Shown here one piece after another: positions 9,496 to 49,656 of a DNA stretch of 64,000 nucleotides. Origin of the DNA: a virus. Lineage: Duplodnaviria > Heunggongvirae > Uroviricota > Caudoviricetes. The number at the start of each line of letters is the position of its first letter. Within the stretch, counting starts at the first letter, position 1. The notes under the pieces were generated by a model, which made no database searches, was not told where the DNA came from, and worked only from the letters and a program-made list of their open reading frames with translations. The stretch spans positions 111,836 through 175,835 of IMG/VR virus record IMGVR_UViG_3300033076_000838. One strand, written 5' to 3'. The position numbers and the translations under genes were made by a program.

Positions 9496-9664
9496 TAGAG
9501 AAGAACATTTAATCAAAACGTTTCCATTAGAAGATGGAACGACATATATTCAATCATTAGATAAATTTAATCAAGTAGAAGATAGTTTGTGTCCTAAATG
9601 TCAATCAATAATACGTGATATGGATAAATTATGTTGGAAATGTTTAATAGAATCAAATAAATAA
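9476..9664 (+). CDS. small hypothetical protein (CxxC...CxxC)
   Basis: ORF track; CPKC...CWKC zinc-ribbon-like. Confidence 0.35.
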   Translation: MEMSEINREEHLIKTFPLEDGTTYIQSLDKFNQVEDSLCPKCQSIIRDMDKLCWKCLIESNK

Positions 9665-9670
9665 TAAGTT

Positions 9671-9862
9671 ATGAATAAAGAAAACATTAAAATTCCGCGT
9701 AGATATGAAAGAGAAATCAACGCATTAGGAGTGCAAATTTCTGGGTTGCGTAGTGAAAATGAAACTTTACAATATCAAATCGATAAGAATACAAAAATAA
9801 TCGAACAATTAGAACACCAAGTGGAATCAATCTACAATACTATTAAGAAAGAAGAAAACTAA
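9671..9862 (+). CDS. small coiled-coil protein
   Basis: ORF track. Confidence 0.35.
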   Translation: MNKENIKIPRRYEREINALGVQISGLRSENETLQYQIDKNTKIIEQLEHQVESIYNTIKKEEN

Positions 9863-10008
9863 TGCCTAAGATATCGTGGGATGAAATCGAACGAGAGAAT
9901 CGAACCCAAACGAAACCCAAAAAGAAAGTAACAAAATTAAAAACCGAAGAACCCAAAGACAAGAAGAGAGATAGTTGGATAGGGATAAACAAAAAACAAC
10001 GATGGTAA
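9862..10008 (+). CDS. small basic protein (48 aa)
   Basis: The ATG overlaps the upstream stop (TAATG); fills a gap; below the ORF-track cutoff. Confidence 0.25.
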   Translation: MPKISWDEIERENRTQTKPKKKVTKLKTEEPKDKKRDSWIGINKKQRW

Positions 10009-10009
10009 T

Positions 10010-10231
10010 ATGTACGAAGTCAAAATAAGATATAACACCAATGCAGTTAATTCAGATGACTTACATTGGCGAGTTATAATAGATGGAGTAGAACACCTAG
10101 CAAGAGAAGTAAATATAAACACACCTACACACACTACCAAAGACTTCATTAAGGAAGTTGGTGAGAAATGGCATATCACAACGAAATGCAAGAGTATCGT
10201 TTGGAAGGGGGATGTATGTATAATCAATTAA
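10010..10231 (+). CDS. hypothetical protein
   Basis: ORF track. Confidence 0.35.
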   Translation: MYEVKIRYNTNAVNSDDLHWRVIIDGVEHLAREVNINTPTHTTKDFIKEVGEKWHITTKCKSIVWKGDVCIIN

Positions 10232-10234
10232 GAT

Positions 10235-10426
10235 ATGAGAAAATTTTTTAGAAGTCAAACCGATAAGAAAATATTCGGAGTTTGTTCTGGTCTAGCAAGA
10301 TATACCAACACCGATGTTGCTTTATGGAGAATCGGTTTCTTAGTAGGTATATTCACACCACTACCGGTAATTATATTTTATTTAGTTACAACGATAGCAT
10401 CGGATGGAATAGAGTATTTAGATTAA
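10235..10426 (+). CDS. PspC-domain small membrane protein
   Basis: KKIFGVCSGLARYTNTDVALWRIGFLVGIF matches the PspC domain consensus, followed by a TM segment. Confidence 0.55.
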   Translation: MRKFFRSQTDKKIFGVCSGLARYTNTDVALWRIGFLVGIFTPLPVIIFYLVTTIASDGIEYLD

Positions 10427-10638
10427 ATCATATAGTGAAATAAAATATATACTAAAATAGTAGGAAAATCGAATAGTTTCGTTTATTTATCGGTATTTAT
10501 ATTCGTATAAGTTTTCCCCTAACACTTACCGATGATAACGATGAACTATATTTACACTATTATAGATGGAATAAATAATGGTATTATACTAATGATAGGC
10601 ATTGGTATGATATGTTACCTAATTAAAAAAAATAAACG

Positions 10639-10836
10639 ATGGAACAAATAATCGGCGGTTACAAAGAATTCGTAGTAATAGAAAGAGAATTACTAAACGA
10701 ATTATTAGAAGAAAGTAAAGACTATACGAATAGTAAAGGACTACATGCAAAGGGTATCGGTAAAGGAATCGAACGAGCAGTAGAACGAATCAAAGAGAAT
10801 AACATATACAACAAAGATTTTCAGATTAAAAAATAG
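10639..10836 (+). CDS. small hypothetical protein
   Basis: ORF track. Confidence 0.35.
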   Translation: MEQIIGGYKEFVVIERELLNELLEESKDYTNSKGLHAKGIGKGIERAVERIKENNIYNKDFQIKK

Positions 10837-10839
10837 GTT

Positions 10840-11211
10840 ATGAAAAGGTTTATAATCACACTTATTCTTATACTAGGAGTATCAATACAATCACAATCTC
10901 AAACCAAATCGGATAGTTTGCGTATAAACGAAATAGATAATACCTTACGAGAGTATGGTAAACAACAAACGTTATCAAACAAAATAACAATAGTATCCAT
11001 AGCAACAATAGGAATAGGTACTATATTAGGAATACCGGCAGGAACACTCTTAGTAGTCAACACAATAGCAGATTTAACCACAATCCTAATAAGTAGCAAA
11101 TCAAATAAACGATTAAGCAAACATAAATCAAACCCAACGGATACAACCCGCACGAAGGCCACGGAAGGGAATAGGACCGATGGGATAGGAATAAACTATA
11201 TAGTACAATAG
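10840..11211 (+). CDS. secreted or membrane protein
   Basis: N-terminal signal-like segment and a mid TM segment. Confidence 0.4.
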   Translation: MKRFIITLILILGVSIQSQSQTKSDSLRINEIDNTLREYGKQQTLSNKITIVSIATIGIGTILGIPAGTLLVVNTIADLTTILISSKSNKRLSKHKSNPTDTTRTKATEGNRTDGIGINYIVQ

Positions 11212-26715: not shown

Positions 26716-27138
26716 ATGTTACCAAAGAATTTAATATTATTGAGAGGATTACCAGGAGCTGGTAAATCTACATTTGCTAAAACAATGTGGAGTGAATATG
26801 TTATATGTGAAGCAGATGATTATTTCGTTGATGAAGAAACCGGTGAATACAAATTCAATGCAAGAGATTTACCAAAAGCACATAGTTGGTGTAAATCCAA
26901 AGTTGAAACCTTTATGCAAGATAATCAAGCGAATGCCCAATTCTATACAAACATCGTAGTATCTAATACATTCACACAAGAATGGGAAATGGAGGATTAT
27001 ATCAGATTGGCACGAACCTATGGATATAAAGTATTCTCGTTGATTGTTGAAAATAGACATGGTGGAGTAAATCAGCATAATGTCCCTGCGGATAAGTTGG
27101 TCGAAATGCAAAATCGTTTCAGTATAAAATTAATATAA
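26716..27138 (+). CDS. P-loop NTPase, polynucleotide-kinase-like (AAA_33 type)
   Basis: Walker A LLRGLPGAGKSTFAK at the N-terminus; 140 aa kinase-domain size. Confidence 0.5.
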   Translation: MLPKNLILLRGLPGAGKSTFAKTMWSEYVICEADDYFVDEETGEYKFNARDLPKAHSWCKSKVETFMQDNQANAQFYTNIVVSNTFTQEWEMEDYIRLARTYGYKVFSLIVENRHGGVNQHNVPADKLVEMQNRFSIKLI

Positions 27139-28091: not shown

Positions 28092-28105
28092 GTAATTGAT
28101 AATCA

Positions 28106-28131
28106 ATGGGTTGTAAAATAACCCATTTTTT
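28106..28131 (+). terminator. intrinsic terminator
   Basis: ATGGGTT-GTAAAAT-AACCCAT hairpin plus T-run, immediately followed by a promoter. Confidence 0.5.
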
Positions 28132-28132: not shown

Positions 28133-28167
28133 TTTGGATATATCCCAAAAAGTTTGTATATTAGCAG
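28133..28167 (+). promoter_or_regulatory. phage promoter cassette
   Basis: ATTTGGATATATCCC...GTTTGTATATTAGCAG. Confidence 0.5.
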
Positions 28168-28187
28168 TATAACATTAAAACATAAAT

Positions 28188-29048
28188 ATGAGATTATTAT
28201 TAGACCTTACCGATATTTCTAATTCGGATATTAGTTACGAAATATCAAAGTTTCCAGATGGGCAACAATCAATTACAATCAGTTCATTTTTAGTTGAATC
28301 AAATAAAGATTCAATAGTTCAACTTTCTTCTCGTATGAATTCATTCAGAGATATTGAGATGATTATTTGTGCTAATCAGATTCTAAAAGAAATGGGTGTT
28401 CAAAAGGTTGAATTATATACTCCTTATTTTTTAGGAGCACGTAGTGATAGAAAGTTTGGTGAAGGTCAAACTAACTATCTTAAAAATGTGATTTGTCCGA
28501 TTATCAATTCACAAGGATTTTCCAAAGTGATTGTGTTAGACCCACATAGTGATGTATTAGAGGCTTGTTTAAATAACTTTCATAAGATAAATAATATTCG
28601 TTTAGTTGATGATGCATTATCTTACTTTCTTAAAGAAAATGATGATGATAAAGTTATGTTAGTATCGCCTGATGCTGGTGCGTTGAAAAAAATATTCGAT
28701 GTTGCAAAAGAGTTTGGTATTAGTAAAGTAACTACCGCTTCCAAAGTTAGAGATGTGTTAAGTGGACGTATTTTACGAACCGAATTACCAACTATGGATT
28801 TGAGAGGTATAGAACATATTGTTATTATAGATGATATTTGTGATGGTGGTAGAACCTTTATCGAATTGGCGAAAGCAATCAAAGAAATTACTACATTACC
28901 AATTCACTTAATTATAACACATGGTATATTCTCAGCAGGATTTGGTGAGTTAGAAAAATATTTTGATTCCATTCACACTACTGATTCAATTCATGAGGAT
29001 GTATTAGAATTAGGAGCAACAAAGGTTACACAATTAGCAGTATTTTAA
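28188..29048 (+). CDS. prs: ribose-phosphate pyrophosphokinase (PRPP synthetase)-like protein
   Basis: VLDPHSD, MLVSPDAGALKK and the PRPP-binding loop IIDDICDGGRT. Confidence 0.6.
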   Translation: MRLLLDLTDISNSDISYEISKFPDGQQSITISSFLVESNKDSIVQLSSRMNSFRDIEMIICANQILKEMGVQKVELYTPYFLGARSDRKFGEGQTNYLKNVICPIINSQGFSKVIVLDPHSDVLEACLNNFHKINNIRLVDDALSYFLKENDDDKVMLVSPDAGALKKIFDVAKEFGISKVTTASKVRDVLSGRILRTELPTMDLRGIEHIVIIDDICDGGRTFIELAKAIKEITTLPIHLIITHGIFSAGFGELEKYFDSIHTTDSIHEDVLELGATKVTQLAVF

Positions 29049-29059
29049 AAAATAGTAAT

Positions 29060-29533
29060 ATGAATTATTTAGATGAATTTCTTAACCCAACCGAACCAAT
29101 TCGTACCAATTCAAATGTGGATGAGTATTTAGAAACCGGCAAATCTTTACGAAGATTGGTAGATGAATATACAAAGTATGGGTCATTATGTATTGGTTTT
29201 GATTTTGATGGCACGGTCTATGATTATCATAAGACTGGTGCAAAGTATGACCAAGTAATTGACCTATTGAGAGATTTAAAAGAATTGAATTGTACGTTGA
29301 TTTGTTGGACAGCTCAAAAGGATTTAATCTTTGTCGAGGAATTCTTAATAGATAACAACATTCCGTTTGATGGTATAAACACCGATGGAATCAATTTAGG
29401 TTGGGAGAGTAGAAAACCTTTCTTTTCAGCCCTATTAGATGATAGAGCCGGGTTGAAACAGGTCTATGAAGACCTCTACAAATTGGTAAATATTATGAAA
29501 AAACGTATCGATAAATTTGGTAATACCAAATAA
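29060..29533 (+). CDS. HAD-like hydrolase (DFDGT)
   Basis: CIGFDFDGTVYDYH is HAD motif I; LLDDRAG is motif IV-like. Confidence 0.45.
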   Translation: MNYLDEFLNPTEPIRTNSNVDEYLETGKSLRRLVDEYTKYGSLCIGFDFDGTVYDYHKTGAKYDQVIDLLRDLKELNCTLICWTAQKDLIFVEEFLIDNNIPFDGINTDGINLGWESRKPFFSALLDDRAGLKQVYEDLYKLVNIMKKRIDKFGNTK

Positions 29534-29552
29534 AAGTTGTATATTAGCTTTA
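29515..29552 (+). promoter_or_regulatory. phage promoter cassette (variant)
   Basis: AAATTTGG ... GTTGTATATTAGCTTTAT. Confidence 0.4.
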
Positions 29553-29574
29553 TAAAATTAAAACATAAAAGATT

Positions 29575-31047
29575 ATGAATCCATTATTATTGACCGATGG
29601 TTATAAGACAGGACATCACCAACAATACCCAAAAGGGACTACGTTGGTTTATTCCAATTTTACCCCACGTTCTAATAAGTACGCACCAAAAGGGTGTGAC
29701 AAAGTTGTATCATTTGGTCAACAAATGATTATGAAACAAATTCACGAGGCATTCCAAAATGAGTTTTTCTCCAAACCAAAAGATGAGGTTTGTGGTGAAA
29801 TGAAACGTGAGTTAAGTATGTATTTGGGAACTGATTATGATGTTACTCATTTTGAGAAACTACATGATTTAGGTTATTTACCAATTGCAGTAAAAGGTAT
29901 TGAGGAAGGTACAATAGTTCCTATCAAAGTACCAGTATTAACAATCTATAATACTCTACCCGAATTCTATTGGGTAACGAATTATTTAGAAACAATCATC
30001 TCAAATTTATTGTGGAAACCAATGACCTCTGCTACAATTGCACATACATATCGTAAGGTATTAACTGCTTGGTTAGCAATGACCGATATTGAAAAAGATT
30101 GGTTTATTGATTGGCAAGGACACGATTTCTCAATGAGAGGTATGGATTCAGTTGAGGCTACAATCGCAAGTGGTTTAGGTCACTTAACATCATTTAGTGG
30201 AACTGATAGTTTACCTGCAATTTATGGAGCAAGAAAGTACTATGGTGAGAAAGAATTTGTAGGCGGTTCAGTAAATGCAACCGAACATAGTGTAATGTGT
30301 GCGGGTAGTAAAGATGATGAGGTTGGTACATTCCGTAGATTATTAGAAACATATCCAACGGGTATTCTTTCAGTTGTATCTGATACATGGGATTTATGGA
30401 AAGTATGTACCAAACACGTTGTTACTTTGAAAGAAGAAATTTTAGCAAGAGATGGTAAGTTGGTAATCAGACCTGATAGTGGTGACCCTGTCGATATTCT
30501 TTGTGGAAATGGTAGAGAGGTTGATGCTTATAACGATGTTGATGGTAGAGAGCGTTGTGAAAGTAAAGGTGTTATTGAATTACTTTGGGATGTGTTTGGT
30601 GGAACTATCAACGGACAAGGTTACAAAGTATTAGATTCTCATATCGGAGCAATCTATGGTGATAGTATTACGATTGAAAGAGCTAATGAAATTTGTAAAA
30701 GATTAGAAGCAAAAGGTTTCGCATCTACAAACGTTGTATTAGGAATTGGTTCATTCACTTACCAATATAACACTCGTGATACGTTTGGTTTCGCAATGAA
30801 AGCTACTTACGTTGAGATTGATGGTGAAGGTAGAGAAATCTTCAAAGACCCAATTACCGATGATGGAACTAAAAAATCAGCAACAGGTCTATTAAAGGTG
30901 TTTAAAACAACTTTGGAAGGTGATATTGTATTACATGACCAAGTTAGTTGGGAAGAAGAGAGCGAAGGTATATTACAAACCATTTATGAAAATGGTGAGT
31001 TCTATAACGAAACAACTTTGACAGAAATTAAAAATAGATTAAAATAA
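29575..31047 (+). CDS. nadV: nicotinamide phosphoribosyltransferase (NAMPT / NadV-like)
   Basis: N-terminal LLLTDGYKTGHHQQYP is the NAMPT signature; 490 aa. Confidence 0.65.
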   Translation: MNPLLLTDGYKTGHHQQYPKGTTLVYSNFTPRSNKYAPKGCDKVVSFGQQMIMKQIHEAFQNEFFSKPKDEVCGEMKRELSMYLGTDYDVTHFEKLHDLGYLPIAVKGIEEGTIVPIKVPVLTIYNTLPEFYWVTNYLETIISNLLWKPMTSATIAHTYRKVLTAWLAMTDIEKDWFIDWQGHDFSMRGMDSVEATIASGLGHLTSFSGTDSLPAIYGARKYYGEKEFVGGSVNATEHSVMCAGSKDDEVGTFRRLLETYPTGILSVVSDTWDLWKVCTKHVVTLKEEILARDGKLVIRPDSGDPVDILCGNGREVDAYNDVDGRERCESKGVIELLWDVFGGTINGQGYKVLDSHIGAIYGDSITIERANEICKRLEAKGFASTNVVLGIGSFTYQYNTRDTFGFAMKATYVEIDGEGREIFKDPITDDGTKKSATGLLKVFKTTLEGDIVLHDQVSWEEESEGILQTIYENGEFYNETTLTEIKNRLK

Positions 31048-31067: not shown

Positions 31068-32942
31068 ATGTTACAATCAATTTTAGGTTACGCATGGTTA
31101 CTAATCCCATTCTTAGCATTAGTATTTTATAAATTCGTATTAAGAGTTTTCTTCGGTATGGTTATTATACCAGAAAACAAAATCGGTTTGATTACCAAAA
31201 AGTTCGTTCTTTTTGGAACAAACAAATCTTTACCAGATGGTAAGATTATCGCATTGAATGGTGAACCGGGTTTCCAAGCTCATACTTTAGCTCCTGGTTT
31301 ATATTGGGGATATTGGATTTGGCAATATTCGATTGACCAAGCTAATTTGACCGTAATCGAAAAAGGTAGAATCGGTTTATTATCAGCAAAGGATGGTGCT
31401 CAATTACCAACCGGTGCAATCTTAGCTCGTCATATTGAGTGTGATAATTTCCAAGATACAAGAGCGTTTTTATTAAATGGTGGACAGAGAGGTAAACAAG
31501 TAGGTTATTTGAATAACGGGGTTTATCGTATCAATCCATTCTTATTTGATGTGGCAACAGCAGATATTACAAATATTGAAGATGGACAAGTTGGTATTAT
31601 CACAGCCTTAGATGGTACTCCATTAGATGCAGGAAATATCGCAGGTACTGTCGTTGAAGGACATAATAACTTTCAGGACTTTGATAAGTTTTTAGCAAAT
31701 GGTGGTCAGAGAGGTTTACAAACACAAGTAGTTCAAGCAGGTAACTATTCATTTAACCCGTGGGCAGTACAAGTTGAGAAAGTACCGATGACACAAATTC
31801 CAATTGGTCACGTAGGAGTAGTAATCTCATATGTGGGTAAAGAAGGTAAAGATACATCAGGTGCATCTTTCAAACATGGTAATATTGTAGGTAAAGGTGA
31901 GAAGGGTGTTTGTGGTTCTCCATTAGACCCAGGTAAGTATGCAATTAATCCTTATACACATAAGATTGAAGTTGTACCAACTACTAACCTTGTATTGAAT
32001 TGGGCAAACGCACGTTCTGAATCTCATAATTTAGATAAAGGATTAAGTACAATCACAGTCCGTTCAAAAGATGGTTTCCCATTCAATTTGGATGTATCAC
32101 AAATCATTCACATTCCCGCAACCGAAGCACCAAAAGTAATTGCACGTTTCGGTTCAATGCAGAATTTAGTTTCACAAGTATTAGAACCAACGATTGGTAA
32201 CTATTTCAGAAACTCTGCACAAGATAGTGATGTAATCGCGTTCTTATCAACTCGTCAAAGTAGACAAGATGCAGCGAAGGTAGCAATCTCAAAAGTATTG
32301 GATGAGTATAACGTATATGCAGTAGATACTTTGATTGGTGATATTAACCCACCAGAATCATTAATGAAAACATTAACTGATAGAAAGATTGCACAAGAAG
32401 AAGAGGTTACATTTGAAACACAACGTAAAGCACAAGACCAACGTAAAACATTGGAATCAGCGAAGGCGTTAGCGGATATGCAAGGTCAAATGGTAGCAGC
32501 ACAACAATCGGTAGAAATTTCCGAAAGAGAAGCACAGGCATCGGTTAAGAAATCAGAGGGTGAGGCTAAAGCAATTGAATTAAAAGCAACTGCACAAGCA
32601 AACGCGAAGAAAGTAACTGCACAAGCAGATGCTGCACAAATTGAATTGACCGGTAAAGCGGAAGCAACAAAGATTGAAGCCATTGGTAAATCAACCGCGG
32701 AGGCATATCAATTACAAGTTAAAGCAATGGGTTCTGACAACTTCTCTAAATTTAAGATTACCGAAGAGATTGGTAAGAACGGAATTAAGATTATTCCAGA
32801 GGTTCTTATCGGTGGTAATGGTAATGGTTCTCCAATTGATGGTTTATTAGGTATGGAGTTGTTAAAACAAATTACCGACAAAAGAGATTTGCAATCAATT
32901 GTAGATACAACAACTGAAACTACAACTAAAAAAGGTAAGTAA
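31068..32942 (+). CDS. SPFH / band-7 (flotillin-like) membrane protein
   Basis: N-terminal TM segments, an SPFH core, and a long Ala/Gln/Glu/Lys-rich coiled-coil C-terminus as in flotillin YqiK. Confidence 0.55.
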   Translation: MLQSILGYAWLLIPFLALVFYKFVLRVFFGMVIIPENKIGLITKKFVLFGTNKSLPDGKIIALNGEPGFQAHTLAPGLYWGYWIWQYSIDQANLTVIEKGRIGLLSAKDGAQLPTGAILARHIECDNFQDTRAFLLNGGQRGKQVGYLNNGVYRINPFLFDVATADITNIEDGQVGIITALDGTPLDAGNIAGTVVEGHNNFQDFDKFLANGGQRGLQTQVVQAGNYSFNPWAVQVEKVPMTQIPIGHVGVVISYVGKEGKDTSGASFKHGNIVGKGEKGVCGSPLDPGKYAINPYTHKIEVVPTTNLVLNWANARSESHNLDKGLSTITVRSKDGFPFNLDVSQIIHIPATEAPKVIARFGSMQNLVSQVLEPTIGNYFRNSAQDSDVIAFLSTRQSRQDAAKVAISKVLDEYNVYAVDTLIGDINPPESLMKTLTDRKIAQEEEVTFETQRKAQDQRKTLESAKALADMQGQMVAAQQSVEISEREAQASVKKSEGEAKAIELKATAQANAKKVTAQADAAQIELTGKAEATKIEAIGKSTAEAYQLQVKAMGSDNFSKFKITEEIGKNGIKIIPEVLIGGNGNGSPIDGLLGMELLKQITDKRDLQSIVDTTTETTTKKGK

Positions 32943-32945: not shown

Positions 32946-33422
32946 ATGGCATTAGTATTAAAGCCAAGTATGGAAGGGGTGGATAGATTTCCAACCCCTA
33001 CCATATTTTTAGCAGGTTCAATCGAAATGGGAGCCGCTGAGAATTGGCAAGAACGAATAGAAAGAGAATTCAAAGATGAAGAGGTTACATTCTTCAATCC
33101 ACGTAGAGATGATTGGGATAGTAGTTGGTCACATACGAGTGAACAATTCAACACACAAGTAAATTGGGAATTAAATGCATTAGATGATTCGGATATTATC
33201 TTTATGTATTTTTCACCCGAAACTAAATCACCAATTTCTTTATTAGAATTAGGATTATATGCAGACCATCACAAAATGATTGTAGTTTGTCCTGATGGAT
33301 TTTGGAGAAAGGGTAATGTAAGTGTAGTTTGTACACGATATTCAATTCCGATGTTTAACACAATTCAGGAAGGTATATTTGCTTTACGAACAGCCGTTAG
33401 AAAAAATCAAACATTATATTAG
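32946..33422 (+). CDS. nucleoside 2-deoxyribosyltransferase-like protein
   Basis: IFLAGSIE ... SLLELGLY blocks are typical of the NDT-like fold. Confidence 0.45.
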   Translation: MALVLKPSMEGVDRFPTPTIFLAGSIEMGAAENWQERIEREFKDEEVTFFNPRRDDWDSSWSHTSEQFNTQVNWELNALDDSDIIFMYFSPETKSPISLLELGLYADHHKMIVVCPDGFWRKGNVSVVCTRYSIPMFNTIQEGIFALRTAVRKNQTLY

Positions 33423-33467: not shown

Positions 33468-34598
33468 ATGGAAAATTTAAATTCAATTTGCTACATTGCA
33501 ACAATTAATGAGATTAACCCAATTGAGGGTGCGGATAACATCGAACTAGCAGTAGTTGGTGGGTGGAACTGCATCACCAAAAAGGGAGAACAAAAGATAG
33601 GTGATTTGGTAATGATTGCTACAACCGATGCAATTATCCCATTTGAGTTATCCGAAAAGATGGGCGTTACTAACTATCTACGAAAAGGTGGTAGAGTTAG
33701 GACAGTAAAATTAAGAGGCGTTTATTCAGAATGTTTAATCATCCCAATCCAACATATTCCATTTATGGAAAACTATTATGAAGGTAAGGATATGATGAAA
33801 GTGATGGGTATTTACAAATACGAACCACCTGTTAAAATGGTTCAACTTGCAGGTGGTAGAAAGATTCGTTATCAAGACAATCCTAATTTCCATGTGTACT
33901 ATAAGTTCCCTAACTTAAAGAATGTGCCGGGAATGTTTACCGAAGAAGACACGGTCGAAATCACTCGTAAGATTCACGGAACTAATGCCCGTTATGGTAT
34001 TGTTAAGAAAAACAAATTATCATTATGGGATAAAATTAGAAAGTTTATTGGATTAGCAGATAAGTGGATTGAATACGAATTCGTAGTTGGTTCGCATAAT
34101 GTGGAGAAGGGTTCAGATTCTAACGGATTCTATGATACTAATGTTTGGTATGAAATCGAAAAGAAATACAACATCAAACAAAAGTTATGGGATTATGTTA
34201 AGGATGATGCAATGGAACCTGAAATCGGTGATGGTATTACCTTATATGGTGAGATTTACGGAGCGGGAATCCAAAAGGGATATGATTATGGGTTGAAAGA
34301 GATTGAGTTCGTAGGATTCGATGTAAAGGAGGAAGGTGAGTATTTAGACCCAATCAATTCAAAGTTGTTAATCGAACATATTTTGGAATTACCATATGTG
34401 GAGCAATTATATTATGGTAGATGGTCACAAGAAGTGCAAGATAAGTATGTATTCAATAACTACATCAAAGGTACGAAAGTACCAGAAGAGGGTATTGTAA
34501 TCAAACATCAATCTAAGGGAAGAGAAAAAATAGCAAAGGTAATCAACCCTGATTATTTAATCTTCGCTGAAAAACATAACGTAGGTGATTCACACTAA
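33468..34598 (+). CDS. ATP-dependent RNA ligase (Rnl2 family) with an N-terminal tRNA-binding OB domain
   Basis: Motif I TRKIHGTNA (T4 Rnl2 has EKIHGTN), motif IV EGIVIKH, and a KIAKV motif V. The N-terminal roughly 130 aa resemble the Myf/CsaA tRNA-binding fold (EGADNIELAVV...IGDLVMIA). Confidence 0.65.
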   Translation: MENLNSICYIATINEINPIEGADNIELAVVGGWNCITKKGEQKIGDLVMIATTDAIIPFELSEKMGVTNYLRKGGRVRTVKLRGVYSECLIIPIQHIPFMENYYEGKDMMKVMGIYKYEPPVKMVQLAGGRKIRYQDNPNFHVYYKFPNLKNVPGMFTEEDTVEITRKIHGTNARYGIVKKNKLSLWDKIRKFIGLADKWIEYEFVVGSHNVEKGSDSNGFYDTNVWYEIEKKYNIKQKLWDYVKDDAMEPEIGDGITLYGEIYGAGIQKGYDYGLKEIEFVGFDVKEEGEYLDPINSKLLIEHILELPYVEQLYYGRWSQEVQDKYVFNNYIKGTKVPEEGIVIKHQSKGREKIAKVINPDYLIFAEKHNVGDSH

Positions 34599-36031: not shown

Positions 36032-36211
36032 ATGGATAGATTGCATGTTGTTAATTGCACGATTGATGACCATATCTTAAATCATCCTCTTACGGAACAT
36101 CACAAAGATATACAAGATAAAATTGGAGATGCCTTAGAATTATTATTTGAAGCTTACCAAATGGTTGGCAATGAAAGTTACGAATATGATAAAGAGAATA
36201 ACACACATTAG
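36032..36211 (+). CDS. small hypothetical protein
   Basis: Internal ATG of ORF 35975-36211. Confidence 0.25.
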   Translation: MDRLHVVNCTIDDHILNHPLTEHHKDIQDKIGDALELLFEAYQMVGNESYEYDKENNTH

Positions 36212-36965
36212 TGATACACACAACAAACACAATCAACTTACCGATAAATTATCAGGTGGGGATATTCTCATTCATAGTGGGGATATATCTTCGTTAGGTA
36301 GAGAACGCGAAGTTGAAGGGTTTATCAAATGGTTTAATAAGATTGAGGGTTATACTCACAAAATCTTTATTGCCGGTAATCACGATATGTCTTTTGAATC
36401 TGAAATCTTAATGCAAAATAAAATTGATTATTTTGATGGTAAAAGGACAGTATGGGAAACCGAAGGTAATACACATTTTCCATCAAACGGAAAACCACAA
36501 TGGTTGGATATATTGTTAAATTCATGCTTAAACGATAATGTTTATTATTTAGAAAATTCTGACATTACAATTGATGGATTAAAGATTTGGGGTTCTCCTA
36601 TTACACCAACGTTTGGATATAATTGGGCATTCAACAAAGATAGAGGGCATGATATTAATGAGGTGTGGAGTAAAATTCCAACTGATACTGATATTGTTAT
36701 TACACACGGTCCAATCTTTGGATATTGTGATAGAACTGATAGAGGTTATTTAAATGTAGGGTGTGAAGATTTATACCACCGATTAAATGAAATTAAACCA
36801 CACTTACACTTTTCGGGTCACATCCACGAAGCATATGGATATAGACACACCGGGTGGGGTTATGCGTTTAATGGATGTAATTGTGATTTAAGTTATTTAG
36901 TAAATAACAAACCACTTACATTTGATTATGATTTTGAATTGAAAAGTATTATAGATTTTATATAA
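36186..36965 (+). CDS. calcineurin-like metallophosphoesterase (second copy)
   Basis: ITHISDTHNKHN, GDISSLG, IAGNHD and GHIHE blocks; the start is ambiguous (36147 or 36186). Confidence 0.55.
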   Translation: MIKRITHISDTHNKHNQLTDKLSGGDILIHSGDISSLGREREVEGFIKWFNKIEGYTHKIFIAGNHDMSFESEILMQNKIDYFDGKRTVWETEGNTHFPSNGKPQWLDILLNSCLNDNVYYLENSDITIDGLKIWGSPITPTFGYNWAFNKDRGHDINEVWSKIPTDTDIVITHGPIFGYCDRTDRGYLNVGCEDLYHRLNEIKPHLHFSGHIHEAYGYRHTGWGYAFNGCNCDLSYLVNNKPLTFDYDFELKSIIDFI

Positions 36966-37433
36966 ATGGAAACAAATAAAAAAATATGGTTATATTTGGA
37001 TGATGTAAGAACTCCAACTGATAGCAAATGGCAAGTGGTTAGAAACTACGATGAGTTTATTGCACACATCCGTATGAATGGGTTGAATAATTACGAATTG
37101 ATTTCATTAGACCACGATTTAGGAGATACTGCAATGAATGAGTATTTCAACAACGTTTCACCTAACTATACCTTAGATTACAACAACATACAAGAGAAGA
37201 CTGGATTGCATTGTGCTAAATGGTTGGTGAATCAATTTTATAACGAAAATCCAAAATGGAGTAAGTTAGCAAGAGATGTGAAAAAGGGTAAACCATTTCC
37301 ATTTCCAAAAGTATATGTTCATTCAGCAAACCCAATCGGTTCTGCTAATATGATGGGATATATAAACAATTTCTTTATGAACGAAGCCCAACCACAAACA
37401 TGTATTAGGGTTAATATAGAACACACAATTTAA
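36966..37433 (+). CDS. hypothetical protein
   Basis: ORF track. Confidence 0.45.
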   Translation: METNKKIWLYLDDVRTPTDSKWQVVRNYDEFIAHIRMNGLNNYELISLDHDLGDTAMNEYFNNVSPNYTLDYNNIQEKTGLHCAKWLVNQFYNENPKWSKLARDVKKGKPFPFPKVYVHSANPIGSANMMGYINNFFMNEAQPQTCIRVNIEHTI

Positions 37434-46277: not shown

Positions 46278-46366
46278 AGAGAGTTGGCCGAGTTGGTTGA
46301 TGGCACCGGTCTTGAAAACCGGCAGATGTAAAAGTCTCGGGGGTTCGAATCCCTCACTCTCTGCCA
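46278..46366 (+). tRNA. tRNA-Ser (anticodon TGA), type II, CCA encoded
   Basis: Acceptor AGAGAGT/ACTCTCT, anticodon loop CTTGAAA, long variable arm, T-loop GGTTCGAATCC. Confidence 0.8.
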
Positions 46367-46370
46367 AAGT

Positions 46371-46580
46371 ATGATGTTAGAGTTCAAAAAACCAATACCA
46401 GTAGTAGTAGAAGGTAACAAAGATGGATACGCAATCTACGTTACTGATAGTGGTATGTTTGAAAATGATATTTGGTGTGTAGTATTATGTGATGGTGGTA
46501 TAGTTAGACATTACAATTCATCTCAAATAAGGATTTTTCATAACGCAACATTTGACATCAAAAAAGATAATAAATTGTAG
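46371..46580 (+). CDS. small hypothetical protein
   Basis: ORF track. Confidence 0.4.
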   Translation: MMLEFKKPIPVVVEGNKDGYAIYVTDSGMFENDIWCVVLCDGGIVRHYNSSQIRIFHNATFDIKKDNKL

Positions 46581-46748
46581 TGTGTTGGAATTGATTGTGT
46601 AATAACAATCGTGGCAGACAAGCCCTCCTGTCTCGGGGGTGGTGAGAACGAAATAGGTTAGTAATATGGGGTAGACCACCATCCGGCCGGAGAAGTGTTA
46701 TTAACTGAATCGCATCGTGGAGTGTTCGAATCCTCCCACTACAGCAAA
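46576..46748 (+). ncRNA. tRNA-like element of abnormal length (about 173 nt): canonical T-loop plus an acceptor-like pairing TGTAGTG/CACTACA
   Basis: 3' end GGAGTGTTCGAATCCTCCCACTACAG pairs with TGTAGTG at 46576, but the D and anticodon arms are not canonical. Could be an intron-containing or degenerate tRNA. Confidence 0.25.
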
Positions 46749-46770
46749 AGTAAAAAGTTCTTTAACATAT

Positions 46771-47116
46771 GGGGATGTCTGGTATTGACAGATATGAAGT
46801 GTTAGTACAACTGCAAGCAAGGTTAGATGGAAACCTTTGAATACCTATCAAACAATAAACGGCGTTAATAACTACGCTTTGGCTGCCTAATCCCAAAGGG
46901 AAAAGACAACCTCGGGTCGATGCACATTAAACCTCGGAACACAAGTGCTTACAAAGGTGGAAACCAATTGAACCCAAAATCGAATTGGAAACATTAATGA
47001 TAACGAATGTATAAATCTTTATCTATTTTGTTCAGTTAGAAAACGGAACTAAGCTTGTGAATGAAGTTTATTAAACCATATTTTGGACGGGGTTTCGATT
47101 ACCCCCATCTCCACCA
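46771..47116 (+). ncRNA. ssrA: tmRNA (SsrA), tag peptide (A)GVNNYALAA
   Basis: 5' GGGGATGTCTGGTATTGACAG and 3' GGACGGGGTTTCGATTACCCCCATCTCCACCA match the tmRNA tRNA-like domain, with a G3-U70 pair. Internal GGC GTT AAT AAC TAC GCT TTG GCT GCC TAA at 46861-46890 reads GVNNYALAA plus stop. Confidence 0.85.
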
Positions 47117-47276
47117 TTTTTTACGTTTTGTATATTTTTATATATTTATACATACGTTTTGGAATAAGGGTTGAAGCCAACAACTAATAAAACCGATTGT
47201 GTGAACATCTTTCCAACTTATTAGCGGAGGGGTTAAAAAGCCGGATACCCTTAATTCAAAAAAAAAATAAAAAAAG

Positions 47277-47314
47277 ATTTGGAAATATGAAAACTATTTC
47301 GTATCTTTACAAAG
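47277..47314 (+). promoter_or_regulatory. phage promoter (short form) driving the initiator tRNA
   Basis: GATTTGGAAATATGAAAACTATTTCGTATCTTTACAAAG. Confidence 0.5.
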
Positions 47315-47345
47315 TAAAAAGAAAACGTTCTTTAAAATATTATAT

Positions 47346-47417
47346 CGCAGGGTAGAGCAGTGGTAGCTTGGTGGGCTCATAACCCATAGGTCGGAGGTTC
47401 GAATCCTTCCCCTGCAA
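47346..47417 (+). tRNA. initiator tRNA-fMet (CAT)
   Basis: C1-A72 mismatch; three consecutive G-C pairs closing the anticodon stem (GGG-CTCATAA-CCC). Confidence 0.75.
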
Positions 47418-47442
47418 CTAAATAAAAAAACTTTAAAAAAGA

Positions 47443-47479
47443 TTTGGAAATATGAAAACTATTTCGTATCTTTACAAAG
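47443..47479 (+). promoter_or_regulatory. phage promoter (short form), duplicate
   Basis: Identical to the 47277 copy. Confidence 0.5.
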
Positions 47480-47535
47480 TAAAAGAAACCAACCAAACAA
47501 CACAACTATTTTTTAACAATTTAAACAATTAGTAT

Positions 47536-47694
47536 ATGACAAAGTTTTGGAAGTGGTTCGAAAAGTATGGATTTTTAGTTTTAGGTATTAGTAACCTATT
47601 ATGTTTTAATCCTTACAATGCAGTAATTGGGTTAGTATTTATTACCTGGTTTATTGTAGACAAAAAAAATAATAAAAAAGATTTGGAAAATTAA
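47536..47694 (+). CDS. small TM protein (52 aa)
   Basis: MTKFWKWFEKYGFLVLGISNLLCFNPYNAVIGLVFITWFIV...; its 3' end overlaps the next promoter. Confidence 0.3.
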   Translation: MTKFWKWFEKYGFLVLGISNLLCFNPYNAVIGLVFITWFIVDKKNNKKDLEN

Positions 47695-47719
47695 AAAAGT
47701 TTTCGTATCTTTACAAAGT
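47682..47719 (+). promoter_or_regulatory. phage promoter (short form) preceding the ORF-free RNA region
   Basis: GATTTGGAAAATTAAAAAAGTTTTCGTATCTTTACAAAG. Confidence 0.5.
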
Positions 47720-47759
47720 AATCAAACGGATTACAAAAAACGTTCTTTAAAATTATTGA

Positions 47760-49195
47760 AAATATTGTACATAGTAGACTTGTTCTACATAGTACATACC
47801 CGCCGCATATGGTGGTTAAATAAACTTGGAAACAAGGATAAAGTGAATACAATGGTTATTGTGTTTGCGGTTTCATCTTCGGATGGAGCTTGAGTATGCA
47901 AGTGGAATATCATTAGACCTGATTAGTGAGGGTAACTCCGTAGTGAAATGGTTTGATGACTGGGCTCTAGTAGAAGTTCAGTTGAGGTAGGAATATCAAT
48001 AAGAATAATCCATAGAGTTATTGCAAGAAGTAAGGACTTAATCTCTCCTTATCATTGCGTGATTCAATATTAGAGGTTGCTTAAAACCGAAAGGTATGTT
48101 GATGTACAGGTGGTGCTGTTATTTACCTTACCTACATCTCACCAAAGAGTGGGTAATGAAGTAATCTTAAAGTATGACGTTAGAGATAACGTATCGAGTA
48201 GTATAGTATTCCGTTCTTCAAAATGGAACGGAGCTAGTGGTAATCCACTACTTGAATTCATCTACAACCAAAACTCAATTTGCTATTGGTGCAAACTATA
48301 AACAAATAAAGAGAAAGAGGTTACCAGTTGCAGACGAAAGGTGTGTACATAGTAGGGAGTTGTTCCCTGCCACAAATCCCCTCAAAGGAGATGTGATTCT
48401 TTCGAAAAGCTTCTAGCACTGCGAGGTGTTAATCGGGTCGGCGGATTCGAAGAGGTAGAGTACGAAGAGAGTAGTTTGTAACTTTATGAGTGGTAGGCAT
48501 TACTTACCCACATTGAATTGGTACTTCTCAAAAGGAAGTGGAAATTAAGGCAACCCATAACCCTTATAAAGCTGGTTCACAATATGGAGTATTCTCATCC
48601 TTATATTTTTACAATGGTTGTATATTGGTTCGATTCCAATAGTAAAAGCTTCGTAGTGGTTTACGCCAGATTGGTTCGATGTACCTTCGAATAACTGAAT
48701 ACCACTTAAAATAAAAAAGAAAAAAGGTATAATGGTATGGTTTTCCGTAGGGGATTTTCGCCTTAAAGAATCTCAATGATACGAATTTAATTGATGGTAA
48801 GTAACGGATGTAGCTAGTCCTTTGAAAGAACCACCCTACAAAATCTTTCTTTTTTAAACGAACTAATCCTTCGAGGCTTATATTAACCAGAGCATGACTT
48901 GGATGGAGTATTTTGAAGATGGATTAGTTTTTTTATTTAGCTAATAACAAAAAAACAAACAAACGTTACGAAAAAATAATTTTTAGATATTTATAACAAG
49001 ATGAAAAACTTAGCATTACATACAAACAACCAATTACCTACACAAAGACGTGAGTGGGCTGGGAATTGTATGTTTAGTACGATAGTCCTTCCGCAAGCAG
49101 AATTGAATTTTGGCAAGGTAGATTATATTAGTACTCCGTTAAGGGAAGCATCAGGTTGGTAATGATGTAAGATTTAAATAGAAAATATTTGAAGA
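47760..49195 (+). ncRNA. candidate large structured noncoding RNA (about 1.4 kb ORF-free, GC-richer region inside the tRNA array)
   Basis: Promoter at 47682 and terminator at 49197-49229. No ORF longer than 75 aa on either strand. UUCG and GNRA-type hairpins such as CATCTTCGGATG, and tRNA-like T-loop fragments such as ATTGGTTCGATTCCAAT at about 48617. Confidence 0.4.
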
Positions 49196-49196
49196 A

Positions 49197-49229
49197 CCCT
49201 TAACTGATAAAAAAGTTAAGGGTTTTTTC
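49197..49229 (+). terminator. intrinsic terminator
   Basis: CCCTTAAC-TGATAAAAAA-GTTAAGGG plus TTTTTT. Confidence 0.6.
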
Positions 49230-49235
49230 GTATAA

Positions 49236-49307
49236 GGGTTGGTAGCTCAGAGGCAGAGCAATGGTCTGTTAAACCATAGGTCGAGATTTCGAAATTCTCC
49301 CTTCCCT
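49236..49307 (+). tRNA. tRNA-Asn (GTT)-like; acceptor stem has U4-U69 and U5-U68 mismatches
   Basis: D arm GCTC/GAGC, anticodon loop CTGTTAA, T-loop TTCGAAA; acceptor GGGTTGG/CCTTCCC is imperfect. Confidence 0.5.
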
Positions 49308-49325
49308 CAATTAGTTCTTTGATAT

Positions 49326-49397
49326 GCGAATATCGTATAGTGGTTATTACTCCTTCCTTCCAAGTAGGAGACGTAGGTTCGATTCCTACTATTCGCT
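49326..49397 (+). tRNA. tRNA-Gly (TCC)
   Basis: Acceptor GCGAATA/TATTCGC; anticodon loop CTTCCAA. Confidence 0.65.
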
Positions 49398-49405
49398 CAA
49401 TAAAT

Positions 49406-49477
49406 TGCCCGATGGTGTAATGGTTAGCATACATCACTTTGACTGATGTAGTATAGGTTCGAATCCTATTCGGGCAT
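49406..49477 (+). tRNA. tRNA-Gln (TTG)
   Basis: U1-A72; anticodon stem CATCA/TGATG; loop CTTTGAC. Confidence 0.7.
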
Positions 49478-49483
49478 CAATTA

Positions 49484-49559
49484 GGAGATTAGCTCAGTTG
49501 GTTAGAGCATTTGGTTTACATCCAAAGGGTCATAGGTTCGAATCCTATATCTCCTACCA
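49484..49559 (+). tRNA. tRNA-Val (TAC), CCA encoded
   Basis: Acceptor GGAGATT/ATCTCCT; loop TTTACAT. Confidence 0.75.
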
Positions 49560-49566
49560 TTTAAAT

Positions 49567-49648
49567 GCCGACGTCGCATAGTGGCAATTGCAAGGGACTG
49601 TAAATCCCTCCTCTTCGGAGTTCGTAGGTTCGAGTCCTACCGGCGGCA
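49567..49648 (+). tRNA. tRNA-Tyr (GTA), type II
   Basis: Anticodon stem AGGGA/TCCCT, loop CTGTAAA, long variable arm. Confidence 0.7.
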
Positions 49649-49656
49649 CAACAAAT

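Follow-up and report, generated by a model that had tools for sequence, protein, structure and literature searches.

The gene cluster at positions 28,188 to 31,047 of the window, by which we mean the whole 64,000-nt stretch of viral DNA that was analysed, appears to be a NARP1 operon for NAD+ reconstitution with a HAD-type phosphatase added to it. We assign this reading a probability of roughly 0.55, which blends our separate figures for the enzyme core, for the link of the HAD gene to that core and for the HAD substrate. The first-pass annotation of this DNA had described a Prs-like gene, a small HAD gene and a NAMPT-like gene, and the three are co-oriented open reading frames on the plus strand at exactly the coordinates it gave. 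The genes and the transcription signals around them are as follows.

28105..28127, plus strand: terminator-like hairpin with a 10-pair stem, followed by the T-run TTTTATTTGG; it closes the upstream unit just before the promoter-like motif of Adps.
28133..28164, plus strand: promoter-like bipartite motif TTTGG-N-TATATTAG, copy P1, upstream of Adps.
28154..28186, plus strand: 33-nt leader TTGTATATTAGCnnTATAAnATTAAAACATAAA, copy 1, ending 1 nt before the Adps ATG.
28188..29048, plus strand: Adps, 286 aa, a PRPS-like ADP-ribose pyrophosphokinase; predicted reaction ADPR + ATP -> ADPR-PP + AMP.
29060..29533, plus strand: small HAD-superfamily phosphatase, 157 aa, with no separate cap domain in the model; proposed NARP1 accessory enzyme.
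29516..29547, plus strand: promoter-like motif, copy P2, overlapping the 3' end of HAD, upstream of Namat.
29537..29569, plus strand: 33-nt leader, copy 2, ending 5 nt before the Namat ATG.
29575..31047, plus strand: Namat, 490 aa, a nicotinamide ADP-ribose transferase; predicted reaction ADPR-PP + nicotinamide -> NAD+ + PPi.

Spacers of 11 nt and 41 nt separate Adps from HAD and HAD from Namat, respectively, the distance from Adps to the Namat start is 527 nt on the same strand, and no terminator-like site was seen between the three genes. The promoter-like motif has nine matches in the window, all on the plus strand, where 0.18 were expected, and its copies have a longer consensus in common, tATTTGGATATAT-N11/12-GTATATTAGC. 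The leader occurs in exactly two near-identical copies in the 64 kb and in none of 100 shuffles. Together, motif and leader span 28133-28186 before Adps and 29516-29569 before Namat. Because no promoter-like motif or leader of its own was seen before HAD, this gene would ride on the Adps transcript, while Namat probably has its own start besides the Adps-led transcript. The co-transcription proposed in the first-pass annotation thus stands for HAD and is probably incomplete for Namat.

A megablast search of the 2.9-kb region against isolated phages returned only a 160-bp patch, in Staphylococcus phages, which indicates that there is no close cultured relative; protein-level searches were therefore used. 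In the family scan, the third protein matched NAPRTase and NAMPT_N, phrog_448 at 662 bits and NF006629 at 560 bits (cut-off 405), in agreement with the earlier NAMPT-family call, and the NAMPT motif DGYKTGHH reported for it lies at residues 8-15. The protein scored 557 bits against the structures of SPbetaL1 Namat (PDB 9W5X/9W5W; PMC12774641), whereas it scored only about 225 bits (221-239) against NAMPT entries from human, rodent and Xanthomonas, and it is 53-54% identical to the SPbetaL1 and FADO Namat proteins, both of which have been tested experimentally. The published signature of the SCH selectivity clamp, GS-X-phi1-X-phi2-X-phi3-TRD with aromatic X, which is not found in NAMPT, is matched exactly by the adenine-clamp motif G392-S-F-T-Y-Q-Y-N-T-R-D402, and this motif is identical to that of SPbetaL1 and FADO. 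The SCL loop, TPRSN-K35-Y36, has the Lys-then-aromatic form that FADO, Hakuna and Bas63 also have, and the alignment suggests that it supplies a third residue stacking on adenine. The catalytic residues D8, Y10, F185, R188, H238, R299 and D301 (residue list for NAMPT-like enzymes in PMC12774641) are invariant in an alignment with SPbetaL1, FADO, Bas63, Bas60 and others, so that the NAMPT-like core of nicotinamide-stacking Tyr/Phe, Asp, Arg and catalytic His is complete. The third gene product is a Namat, predicted to favor ADPR-PP over PRPP and to make NAD+ directly from ADPR-PP.

The first protein matched Pribosyltran/Pribosyl_synth and phrog_619 (223 bits) in the family scan, as its assignment to the Prs family had implied, and the PRPP-loop motif IIDDICDGGRT was found at residues 213-223. 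However, it reached none of the Prs equivalog cut-offs. With the Prs model TIGR01251 it scored 104 bits, under the cut-off of 113, in comparison with 139, 106, 100 and 96 bits for the four tested Adps proteins (Bas63, SPbetaL1, Gary and FADO, respectively) and 423 bits for E. coli Prs, the only cellular Prs in the comparison. An Adps HMM built without the window protein gave it 201 bits and E. coli Prs 112 bits. The residues DDICD (215-219), K186, H120 and D162 are present. By motif matching rather than alignment, the PP loop D215-D-I-C-D219 with F224 corresponds to D212-D-I-C-D216 with F221 in the Adps of Vibrio phage ICP1 (structures in PMC13586617), and the beta-hairpin A184-L200 with K186 corresponds to A183-L199 with the catalytic K185. 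The C-terminal alpha11-alpha12 filament and regulatory module of Prs is lacking; the alignment of E. coli Prs runs about 20 residues further. Among Adps proteins, the window protein is very divergent from those of Bacillus phages (56-73 bits) and nearer to the Bas60/Gary/Bas63 type (109-152 bits), with 37.5% identity and 152 bits to Bas60. According to a published survey, 97% of Adps-clade genes adjoin Namat and bacterial prs genes rarely do; the gene studied here has Namat in its vicinity. Its product lies outside the housekeeping Prs family and is of the Adps type, with ADPR pyrophosphorylation as its predicted activity.

The pair is, with high probability, the NARP1 core (Adps plus Namat) and not a PRPP/NMN salvage pathway. 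The first-pass annotation had offered both readings and had held that sequence alone cannot tell them apart, but by criteria published since, the sequence does decide: the Namat clamp signature and an Adps score in the range of validated Adps proteins point to NARP1. Ordinary salvage, in which Prs would make PRPP, NadV/NAMPT would make NMN and a phage or host NMN adenylyltransferase would act last, as in NARP2, is very improbable. Although both proteins match Prs and NAMPT family models, Namat keeps some PRPP-dependent NMN synthesis in vitro (published) and the window is part of a genome likely to exceed 280 kb, outside which window an NMNAT may lie, this reading is at odds with the complete clamp, with a Namat far nearer to the solved Namat than to any NAMPT, with a Prs-like protein that scores as tested Adps do, and with the neighborhood survey. 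The locus also differs from NARP2 (Nampt plus Nmnat) in carrying the adenine clamp, and a Pfam scan of 32 ORFs of the window turned up no NMNAT domain. NARP3 (PnuC plus NadR) was considered and is irrelevant to the locus.

The middle protein had no Pfam match in the family scan, but the earlier HAD call is supported by motif I (DFDGT), by phrog_1238 and by a weak match to the BT0820 HAD-phosphatase model. The HAD motifs I DxDx(T/V), II S/T, III K/R and IV DD/ExD are all present on a Rossmannoid core; in a diverse and in a deep alignment, motifs I, III and IV show no variation and the Thr of motif II hardly any. For the structure, the alignment comprised sequences at least 60% identical to the query. 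The nearest solved folds are 2obb (BT0820) and 1xpj (VC APC26283), and other structural relatives are the phosphatase domains of T4 Pnkp and Pnkp1 and the phage pentose 5-phosphatase AfhF (9iqw), none of which handles ADPR. Identity to BT0820, VC APC26283 and AfhF is only 14-24%. The PDB entries of 2obb and 1xpj carry no functional description, and AfhF takes the 5-phosphate off arabinose 1,5-bisphosphate in a DNA-hypermodification pathway; unlike the window HAD, none of the three is linked to NAD+ genes. From its motifs, we infer that the HAD protein is an active Mg-dependent phosphomonoesterase.

HAD genes of this kind lie beside NARP1 genes in many genomes. Adps and Namat were next to HAD in all of the first 10 loci examined. 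Among 80 HAD-seeded viral loci, Namat was found within 8 kb in 60 and Adps in 58, and Adps and/or Namat were adjacent in 68 of 80 bacterial HAD loci (Bacteroidota and Paenibacillaceae). After clustering of HAD at 90% identity over phage and bacterial contigs, 119/143 clusters adjoin Adps/Namat. The genes come in at least six orders in Herelleviridae, crAss-like phages, Phass-1 and the sampled metagenomic and bacterial loci, with Adps-HAD-Namat the commonest. In about 17-22% of HAD clusters, the flank holds no NARP1 gene, and some of these clusters have as a neighbor an RNA ligase, a “Swiss-army-knife” RNA-repair HAD or a calcineurin-like phosphoesterase. The HAD gene is therefore not incidental; it is a recurrent, tightly linked third gene in a large subset of NARP1 operons, and it likely works together with NARP1. 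Its description in the first-pass annotation as not a standard member of either pathway agrees with the literature searched, in which no role of a HAD gene in NARP1 operons is reported and the Aravind-lab surveys of viral NAD+/ADPr systems describe no HAD gene in NAD-synthesis operons, but it undersold how often the gene recurs. In sum, the NARP1 core was already known, and the HAD variant was not found in the literature searched.

Further genes of the window bear on what the HAD protein may do.

26716-27138: P-loop kinase.
31068..32942, plus strand: SPFH/Band-7 membrane protein (PF01145, E 9e-27), 20 nt 3' of Namat.
32946..33422, plus strand: putative nucleoside 2-deoxyribosyltransferase-like protein (PF15891, E 1.5e-34).
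33468-34598: RNA ligase.
36147-36965: Metallophos protein.
36966..37433, plus strand: cREC_REC (cyclic-phosphate-processing receiver domain) protein (PF20274, E 1.2e-21).

The RNA ligase, P-loop kinase, Metallophos protein and cREC could be partners of HAD in a phage tRNA-repair kit, in which HAD would be a 3'/2'-phosphate end-healing enzyme that merely sits among NARP1 genes. The presence of these four genes nearby and the Pnkp-like fold matches speak for this, and yet we rank it low because of the linkage counts: within 8 kb in the HAD-seeded viral loci, an RNA ligase was found in 6/80 and a kinase in 4/80, against 60/80 for Namat, and in the 80 bacterial loci the ligase and kinase queries gave no matches, against 65-67 for NARP1 genes. 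Moreover, HAD abuts Adps/Namat in operons of Bacillus Wphvirus, crAss-like phages and Paenibacillaceae whose flanks hold no annotated or detected ligase, and in the window it begins 11 nt after Adps without a promoter of its own. Unlike a Pnkp-type end-healing HAD, it is a stand-alone protein without consistent kinase or ligase linkage. We consider a role in RNA repair improbable.

Other neighbors recur with the core itself. An SPFH gene was present in the 6-kb flanks of 19 of the 80 nearest Namat loci, as well as in the crAss-like phage cr126_1, and the SPFH protein is a recurrent NARP1 neighbor. PF15891 genes were found in 33/80 Namat-seeded and 14/80 HAD-seeded loci, sometimes between HAD and Namat; the sole solved relative is the uncharacterised 4mcj, and a literature search on PF15891 gave no result. 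In one locus group (L036/L038/L040), the cREC gene overlaps the beginning of Adps, and in three other loci (L030, L044 and L051) it lies upstream of Adps in the same cluster; among Namat-seeded loci it occurs in 4 of the 17 with HAD and in 5 of the 63 without. Action of cREC on 1''-2'' cyclic ADPR phosphate has been predicted (PMC9503650). It is possible that cREC is a partner that opens ADPR-1'',2''-cyclic phosphate, and it could equally be an RNA-repair enzyme.

The known system closest to the three-gene arrangement is NARP1-AP of Vibrio phage Gary, Adps-Adpp-Namat, which counters aRES (bioRxiv 10.64898/2026.01.28.702374). Its Adpp is a phosphatase that turns ADPR-1''-phosphate into ADPR. 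As in NARP1-AP, the window has three genes with a small hydrolase in the slot between Adps and Namat, here with intact phosphatase motifs, and in this phage clade too the third gene is kept by some close relatives and absent from others. However, Adpp is a Macro domain, whereas the window protein is a HAD-fold, DxDxT, metal-dependent phosphatase and not a Macro/Poa1p-like one (PF01661, PF14519 or PF20016), and tblastn with Gary Adpp and 17 Adpp-like Macro proteins detected no Macro homologue in the 64-kb window. The locus should therefore not be filed as strict NARP1-AP. The 80 loci nearest in Namat form 73 clusters at 95%, of which 17 have HAD, 18 have an Adpp-like Macro gene and none has both (Fisher p = 0.008), although these loci are phylogenetically non-independent and the significance of the anticorrelation is lost with Namat clusters at 80% identity (p = 0.37). 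In locus L039, an intact Macro gene and an intact HAD gene share one operon, which is the sole co-occurrence found. Strict exclusivity of the two is rejected on both grounds, and the intact pair in L039 indicates that HAD and Macro are not strictly redundant. We infer that HAD may be a non-homologous functional counterpart of the Macro Adpp.

A mechanism can be proposed, in which the Adps and Namat steps are backed by sequence criteria that stem from experimental papers. Host NADase defences (SIR2, TIR, DSR and similar) would release ADP-ribose, which Adps would pyrophosphorylate to ADPR-PP; Namat would then couple nicotinamide with ADPR-PP, so that NAD+ is remade. HAD would widen or repair the ADPR supply by taking a phosphate off a phosphorylated ADPR derivative. 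The likeliest candidate substrate, which we put forward tentatively, is ADPR-1''-phosphate. This compound might come directly from an aRES-type RES-domain defence, from ADPR-PP losing its terminal phosphate, or from the opening of ADPR-1'',2''-cyclic phosphate, possibly by the cREC of some operons. ADPR-1'',2''-cyclic phosphate is a spontaneous decay product of ADPR-PP, ADPR-cP builds up in infected cells, and the published aRES list takes in Bacteroidetes, Bacillus cereus and Paenibacillus. Under this proposal, to which we give somewhat less than even odds, HAD would be a second, non-homologous class of NARP1-associated phosphatase that, alone or with cREC, returns ADPR-1''-phosphate and ADPR-cyclic-phosphate to the pathway. 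Their source could be an aRES-type defence or the pathway's own unstable intermediate.

HAD could also aid NARP1 through a different substrate, such as 2'-phospho-ADPR from NADases that cleave NADP+, an ADPR phosphate isomer made by an undescribed defence, or inorganic pyrophosphate, the removal of which would pull the Namat reaction forward. This seems unlikely, though less so than a role in RNA repair. No data favour any specific one of these compounds, and a common role agrees better with the way in which HAD and Macro take each other's place in one slot among close relatives. An inorganic pyrophosphatase is already present in hosts, which counts against pyrophosphate. In view of the Macro-plus-HAD operon L039, HAD may instead answer a still-undescribed NAD(P)+ cleavage.

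The HAD-extended operon that we favor has the same two-enzyme core as NARP1 of Bas63, SPbetaL1 and FADO (Osterman et al., bioRxiv 10.1101/2024.02.11.579819), with the DDICD PP loop, the catalytic Lys and the truncated C-terminus in Adps, and with Adps upstream of Namat. It differs in having HAD between the core genes and in the separate promoter-like leader copy of each core gene. The principle proposed for HAD, an accessory enzyme inside the NARP1 operon, is the same as that of RyDEP in the NARP1 locus of mycobacteriophage DyoEdafos (bioRxiv 10.64898/2026.05.28.727677), which converts an ADPR derivative to linear ADPR for Adps; RyDEP itself is a glycosidase with a RyR domain, its targets are 2'/3' cADPR signals, and its fold and chemistry are unrelated to HAD. 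The proposed logic also resembles the yeast Cpd1 plus Poa1 route for ADP-ribose 1'',2''-cyclic phosphate (cited in 10.64898/2026.01.28.702374 and PMC9503650), where a cyclic phosphodiesterase and then a phosphomonoesterase regenerate ADPR, as cREC might do before HAD in those operons that have cREC upstream of Adps, abutting it in one locus group. The yeast enzymes are a 2H and a Macro protein, unrelated to the cREC and HAD of the phages, and the phage version is a prediction.

NAD+ depletion is among the commonest bacterial antiviral strategies, and the rebuilding of NAD+ by phages decides whether such defences work. Work from 2026 showed that NARP1 operons acquire “adaptor” enzymes, through which unusual products of NAD+ breakdown enter the pathway, and two have been described, the Macro Adpp against aRES (10.64898/2026.01.28.702374) and RyDEP against Thoeris signals (10.64898/2026.05.28.727677). 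The locus points to a third adaptor family, a viral and bacterial HAD phosphatase that often occupies the Adpp slot. If this is true, “NARP1 plus phosphatase” would reach beyond phages of Proteobacteria to those of Bacteroidota and Bacillus, and also to chromosomal three-gene modules in Bacteroidota and Paenibacillaceae. If the HAD substrate differs from ADPR-phosphate, the gene would flag a route of NAD(P)+ breakage not yet described. Should HAD act as an ADPR-phosphate phosphatase, the arms race would have produced a non-orthologous replacement, and the gene would help to forecast which phages overcome the aRES-like systems of Bacteroidota and Firmicutes.

Three open reading frames, all on the plus strand, occupy the positions at which the first-pass annotation had placed a Prs-like gene, a small HAD hydrolase gene and a NAMPT-like gene:

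28188-29048, plus strand, Prs-like ORF (Adps), 286 aa
29060-29533, plus strand, HAD-like ORF, 157 aa
29575-31047, plus strand, NAMPT-like ORF (Namat), 490 aa

The genes are separated by spacers of 11 nt (Adps/HAD) and 41 nt (HAD/Namat). Both motifs quoted in that annotation were found in the proteins, and family scans upheld the Prs-like and NAMPT-like assignments. It had left two readings for the pair, the NAD+-rebuilding pathway NARP1 or a NadV-type salvage.

We compared the first protein with phage Adps and with E. coli Prs. Against the Prs model TIGR01251 it scored 104 bits (cut-off, 113); the tested Adps proteins of Bas63, SPbetaL1, Gary and FADO scored 139, 106, 100 and 96 bits, respectively, and E. 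coli Prs 423 bits. None of the scored phage proteins reached the Prs equivalog cut-offs. An HMM built from eight reference Adps proteins, with the window protein left out, gave the latter 201 bits versus 112 bits for E. coli Prs. In pairwise comparisons the nearest protein was Bas60 Adps (152 bits, 37.5% identity), followed by those of Gary (123 bits) and Bas63 (109 bits), with E. coli Prs at 58 bits. According to the structures of ICP1 Adps (2026, PMC13586617), the family is marked by remodelling of the PP loop, by a hairpin lysine with a catalytic role and by loss of the C-terminal alpha11-alpha12 module. The window protein, compared with ICP1 Adps by motif matching and with cellular Prs through the E. 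coli enzyme, contains D215-D-I-C-D219...F224, a 17-residue segment A184-L200 with K186, and H120 and D162, and its C-terminal end falls before the start of the Prs C-terminal extension.

In Namat, a selectivity clamp favours ADPR-PP over PRPP; it is composed of a conserved helix motif, GS-X-phi-X-phi-X-phi-TRD with X aromatic, and a variable loop that provides the third stacking residue (PMC12774641). The clamp helix of the window protein, G392-S-F-T-Y-Q-Y-N-T-R-D402, is identical in SPbetaL1 and FADO and matches Bas63, Bas60 and Gary, the clamp loop carries K35-Y36 of the Lys-then-aromatic type, and all catalytic-core residues are kept. When searched against all PDB sequences, the protein scored 557 bits to 9W5X/9W5W, which are SPbetaL1 Namat (PMC12774641), versus 221-239 bits for NAMPT of human, rodent and Xanthomonas origin. 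With the Namat proteins of SPbetaL1 and FADO, both shown by experiment to counter NAD+ depletion, it shares 53-54% identity.

Because the Adps signatures and scores occur together with an adjacent Namat gene, we assign the pair to NARP1, with a probability of roughly 0.9. The Namat clamp motif, the match to a solved Namat and the Adps-range TIGR01251 score all uphold this branch of the earlier either/or. In a published survey, 97% of Adps-clade genes had an adjoining Namat, and NARP1 was present in 4.3% of phage genomes. Salvage through PRPP and NMN, as in NARP2 (Nampt plus Nmnat), is an unlikely function of the pair; no NMNAT was found among the 32 ORFs scanned in the window, which is only part of the genome. 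As NARP1, the core is an additional member of a known, well-characterised system.

The middle protein gave no match in Pfam. It contains a DFDGT motif, weakly matches the BT0820 HAD-phosphatase model and matches phrog_1238, whose PHROGs label, "phosphoheptose isomerase", we take to be a misnomer. In alignments with 12 diverse homologues (34-72% identity) and with 55 closer ones, D48, F49, D50 and T52 of motif I, K119 of motif III and D127-D128 of motif IV were invariant, as were R32, E36, H57, N107 and R129; T84 of motif II was invariant among the 55 closer sequences and almost so among the 12 diverse ones. HAD phosphatases typically carry the Asp+2 residue in motif I. Judged by its motifs, the middle gene is predicted to encode an intact HAD phosphatase.

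This HAD protein is a recurrent member of NARP1 operons. Its family was detected by tblastn in 81 INPHARED records, mostly of Bacillus Bastillevirinae, Lak and crAss-like phages, and the gene adjoined the pair in all three isolated-phage contexts examined, in the orders Adps-Namat-HAD (Bacillus phage Hakuna), Namat-HAD-Adps (crAss-like phage cr126_1) and Prs-Nampt-HAD (Phass-1). Directly 5' of the Phass-1 genes is an annotated nicotinamidase (L003 896-1441), which is odd for a nicotinamide-consuming pathway. An alignment-seeded scan of IMG/VR returned 80 HAD loci, of which 60 had Namat and 58 had Adps within 8 kb, mostly directly adjoining and most commonly in the order Adps-HAD-Namat. Among the 80 loci returned from species-representative bacterial genomes, Adps and/or Namat adjoined HAD in 68, in the order Adps-HAD-Namat in Bacteroidota and HAD-Adps-Namat in Cohnella and Paenibacillus. 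Among these bacterial contigs (L178-L257), those of Bacteroidota (Flavobacterium, Saprospiraceae, Chitinophagaceae, Mucilaginibacter) often carried all three genes as one module, as did those of Paenibacillaceae (Cohnella, Paenibacillus); the modules may be prophage-borne or chromosomal. RNA ligase and P-loop kinase genes were near HAD in 6/80 and 4/80 viral loci, respectively, and neither query matched within the 80 bacterial loci. Where NARP1 is missing, the HAD loci reduce to a few lineages of more distant homologues, some with an RNA ligase, a Metallophos protein or RNA-repair HADs nearby. When HAD sequences were de-duplicated at 90% identity, NARP1 genes adjoined 119 of the 143 clusters; at 70% they adjoined 60 of 77. 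The first-pass view that HAD is not a standard member of either pathway is borne out by the NARP papers searched and their Table S1, none of which mentions a HAD protein, though it understates how often the gene recurs beside NARP1. The covered portions of the table list Proteobacteria phages only, and the term "Bacillus phage" is absent from the table.

The aRES defence splits NAD+ into nicotinamide and ADPR-1''-phosphate, the latter being unusable for NARP1; ADPR is restored by the Macro-domain phosphatase Adpp, which is present in 15% of NARP1 operons and was tested in the Adps-Adpp-Namat operon of Vibrio phage Gary (Osterman et al. 2026, 10.64898/2026.01.28.702374). The published aRES list includes Bacteroidetes, Bacillus cereus and Paenibacillus. 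In the 80 IMG/VR loci whose Namat most resembles that of the window (53-85% identity), HAD was present in 17, a Macro protein homologous to Gary Adpp in 19 (representative 37.5% identical, E 7e-17) and both in none. De-duplication at 95% Namat identity left 17 clusters with HAD only, 18 with Macro only, 0 with both and 38 with neither (Fisher p = 0.008). Upon clustering at 80% this anticorrelation disappeared (p = 0.37), since a given Namat cluster then includes HAD-bearing as well as Macro-bearing loci. Among all 240 loci, the two occurred together only in L039, as Macro-Adps-HAD-Namat with both genes intact. At 8410-11018 of that locus, a 309-aa ORF that looks like an inserted mobile element splits Namat exactly inside the SCH clamp motif (...GVG / ...TRDSLG); Namat of several Bacillus phages (Izhevsk, Kirov, Tsamsa) likewise aligns as two pieces. 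Since some close relatives of the window operon lack the HAD gene, with Adps abutting Namat (e.g. L098), HAD behaves as a facultative insert in the NARP1 operon, as do Adpp and RyDEP. The window module has the same architecture as NARP1-AP (NARP1 plus Adpp) but lacks the Macro domain that defines it, so that it may function in the manner of NARP1-AP while standing outside that pathway.

On sequence criteria, Adps would convert ADPR and ATP to ADPR-PP, and Namat would combine ADPR-PP with nicotinamide to form NAD+. HAD would release ADPR from a phosphorylated derivative by phosphomonoester hydrolysis. Its most economical candidate substrate would be ADPR-1''-phosphate, because three routes may lead there: cleavage of NAD+ by aRES, loss of the terminal phosphate from ADPR-PP (giving ADPR-P, as after apyrase treatment) and opening of the ring of ADPR-cyclic phosphate. 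Published work has observed ADPR-P on apyrase treatment and the build-up in infected cells of ADPR-cyclic phosphate, into which ADPR-PP decays spontaneously. Several operons with HAD have a cREC ("cyclic-phosphate processing receiver") gene upstream of Adps, and in one locus group it overlaps the Adps start; among Namat-seeded loci, cREC was commoner in those with HAD (4/17) than in the others (5/63). In the window, one copy lies 6 kb downstream:

36966-37433, cREC_REC protein

The cRec domain has been predicted to open 1''-2'' cyclic ADPR phosphate (Aravind and colleagues, PMC9503650) and equally, in a survey from the Aravind laboratory, to act on RNA ends. Processing of cyclic ADPR phosphate by cREC and then HAD would, if correct, mirror the yeast Cpd1/Poa1 route.

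The NARP1 cluster of the window is flanked by RNA-repair-like genes, a set that includes the cREC_REC gene above as well as:

26716-27138, AAA_33 P-loop kinase
33468-34598, RNA ligase (PHA02142 OB-fold plus RNA_ligase)
36147-36965, calcineurin-like phosphoesterase (Metallophos)

Thg1-like, CCA-adding-enzyme-like and "Swiss-army-knife" HAD genes are found near Namat in the relatives L100 and L101. Also present in the window are:

31068-32942, SPFH/Band-7 membrane protein, 624 aa, 20 nt after Namat
32946-33422, PF15891 nucleoside 2-deoxyribosyltransferase-like gene

SPFH genes are near NARP1 in 19/80 related loci and in crAss-like phage cr126_1 (L002 5408-6199); we know of no functional link between SPFH and NAD+. 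Of the 80 nearest Namat loci, 33 have a PF15891 gene with NARP1, which makes it commoner than HAD or Macro. Other loci with the gene include L015, L018, L019, L030, L037 and L044, and in several loci its position is between HAD and Namat. The one relative with a solved structure, 4mcj, is uncharacterised, and the PF15891 protein may be a further accessory enzyme acting on ADPR derivatives.

The window is AT-rich (GC 23-39%), with almost all long ORFs on the plus strand, and contains a translation-related array:

46278-53344, plus strand, 25 tRNA genes and a tmRNA gene (tag peptide GVNNYALAA)

Such an array is typical of a jumbo phage that has its own translation and repair toolkit. No close cultured relative of the window was found; the nearest relative is a 288,673-bp IMG/VR contig of identical gene order, with 84-94% protein identity in HAD, Namat, SPFH and the PF15891 protein and only 61% in Adps. 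The source is an uncultivated jumbo-type phage. A bipartite promoter-like motif, TTTGG-N17-22-TATNTTAG (longer consensus, tATTTGGATATAT-N11/12-GTAT(A/G)TTAGC), occurs in nine copies versus 0.18 expected by chance:

12679-58329, plus strand, nine promoter-like sites, e.g. 13061, 13930, 14238, 19098, 28133, 29516, 55820, 58298

One copy each is located 5' of Adps and of Namat, and a terminator-like hairpin lies just 5' of the Adps copy. A near-identical 33-nt leader up to the start codon (28154-28186 and 29537-29569) precedes only these two genes; it occurs twice in the 64 kb and never in shuffled sequences. No copy of the motif was found for HAD, which starts 11 nt past Adps. The leader appears to be a duplicated element for regulation and translation initiation, common to Adps and Namat and lacking in the HAD gene. 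Bacteroidota promoters are of the -33 TTTG / -7 TAnnTTTG type, and the resemblance of the motif to them hints at a Bacteroidota host, in agreement with the bacterial taxa that hold the closest HAD, Adps and Namat homologues.

The HAD insert makes this module a variant form of NARP1. We found no report of the breadth of the HAD-NARP1 linkage in the literature searched, and this linkage leads to a one-protein experiment with a clear prediction.
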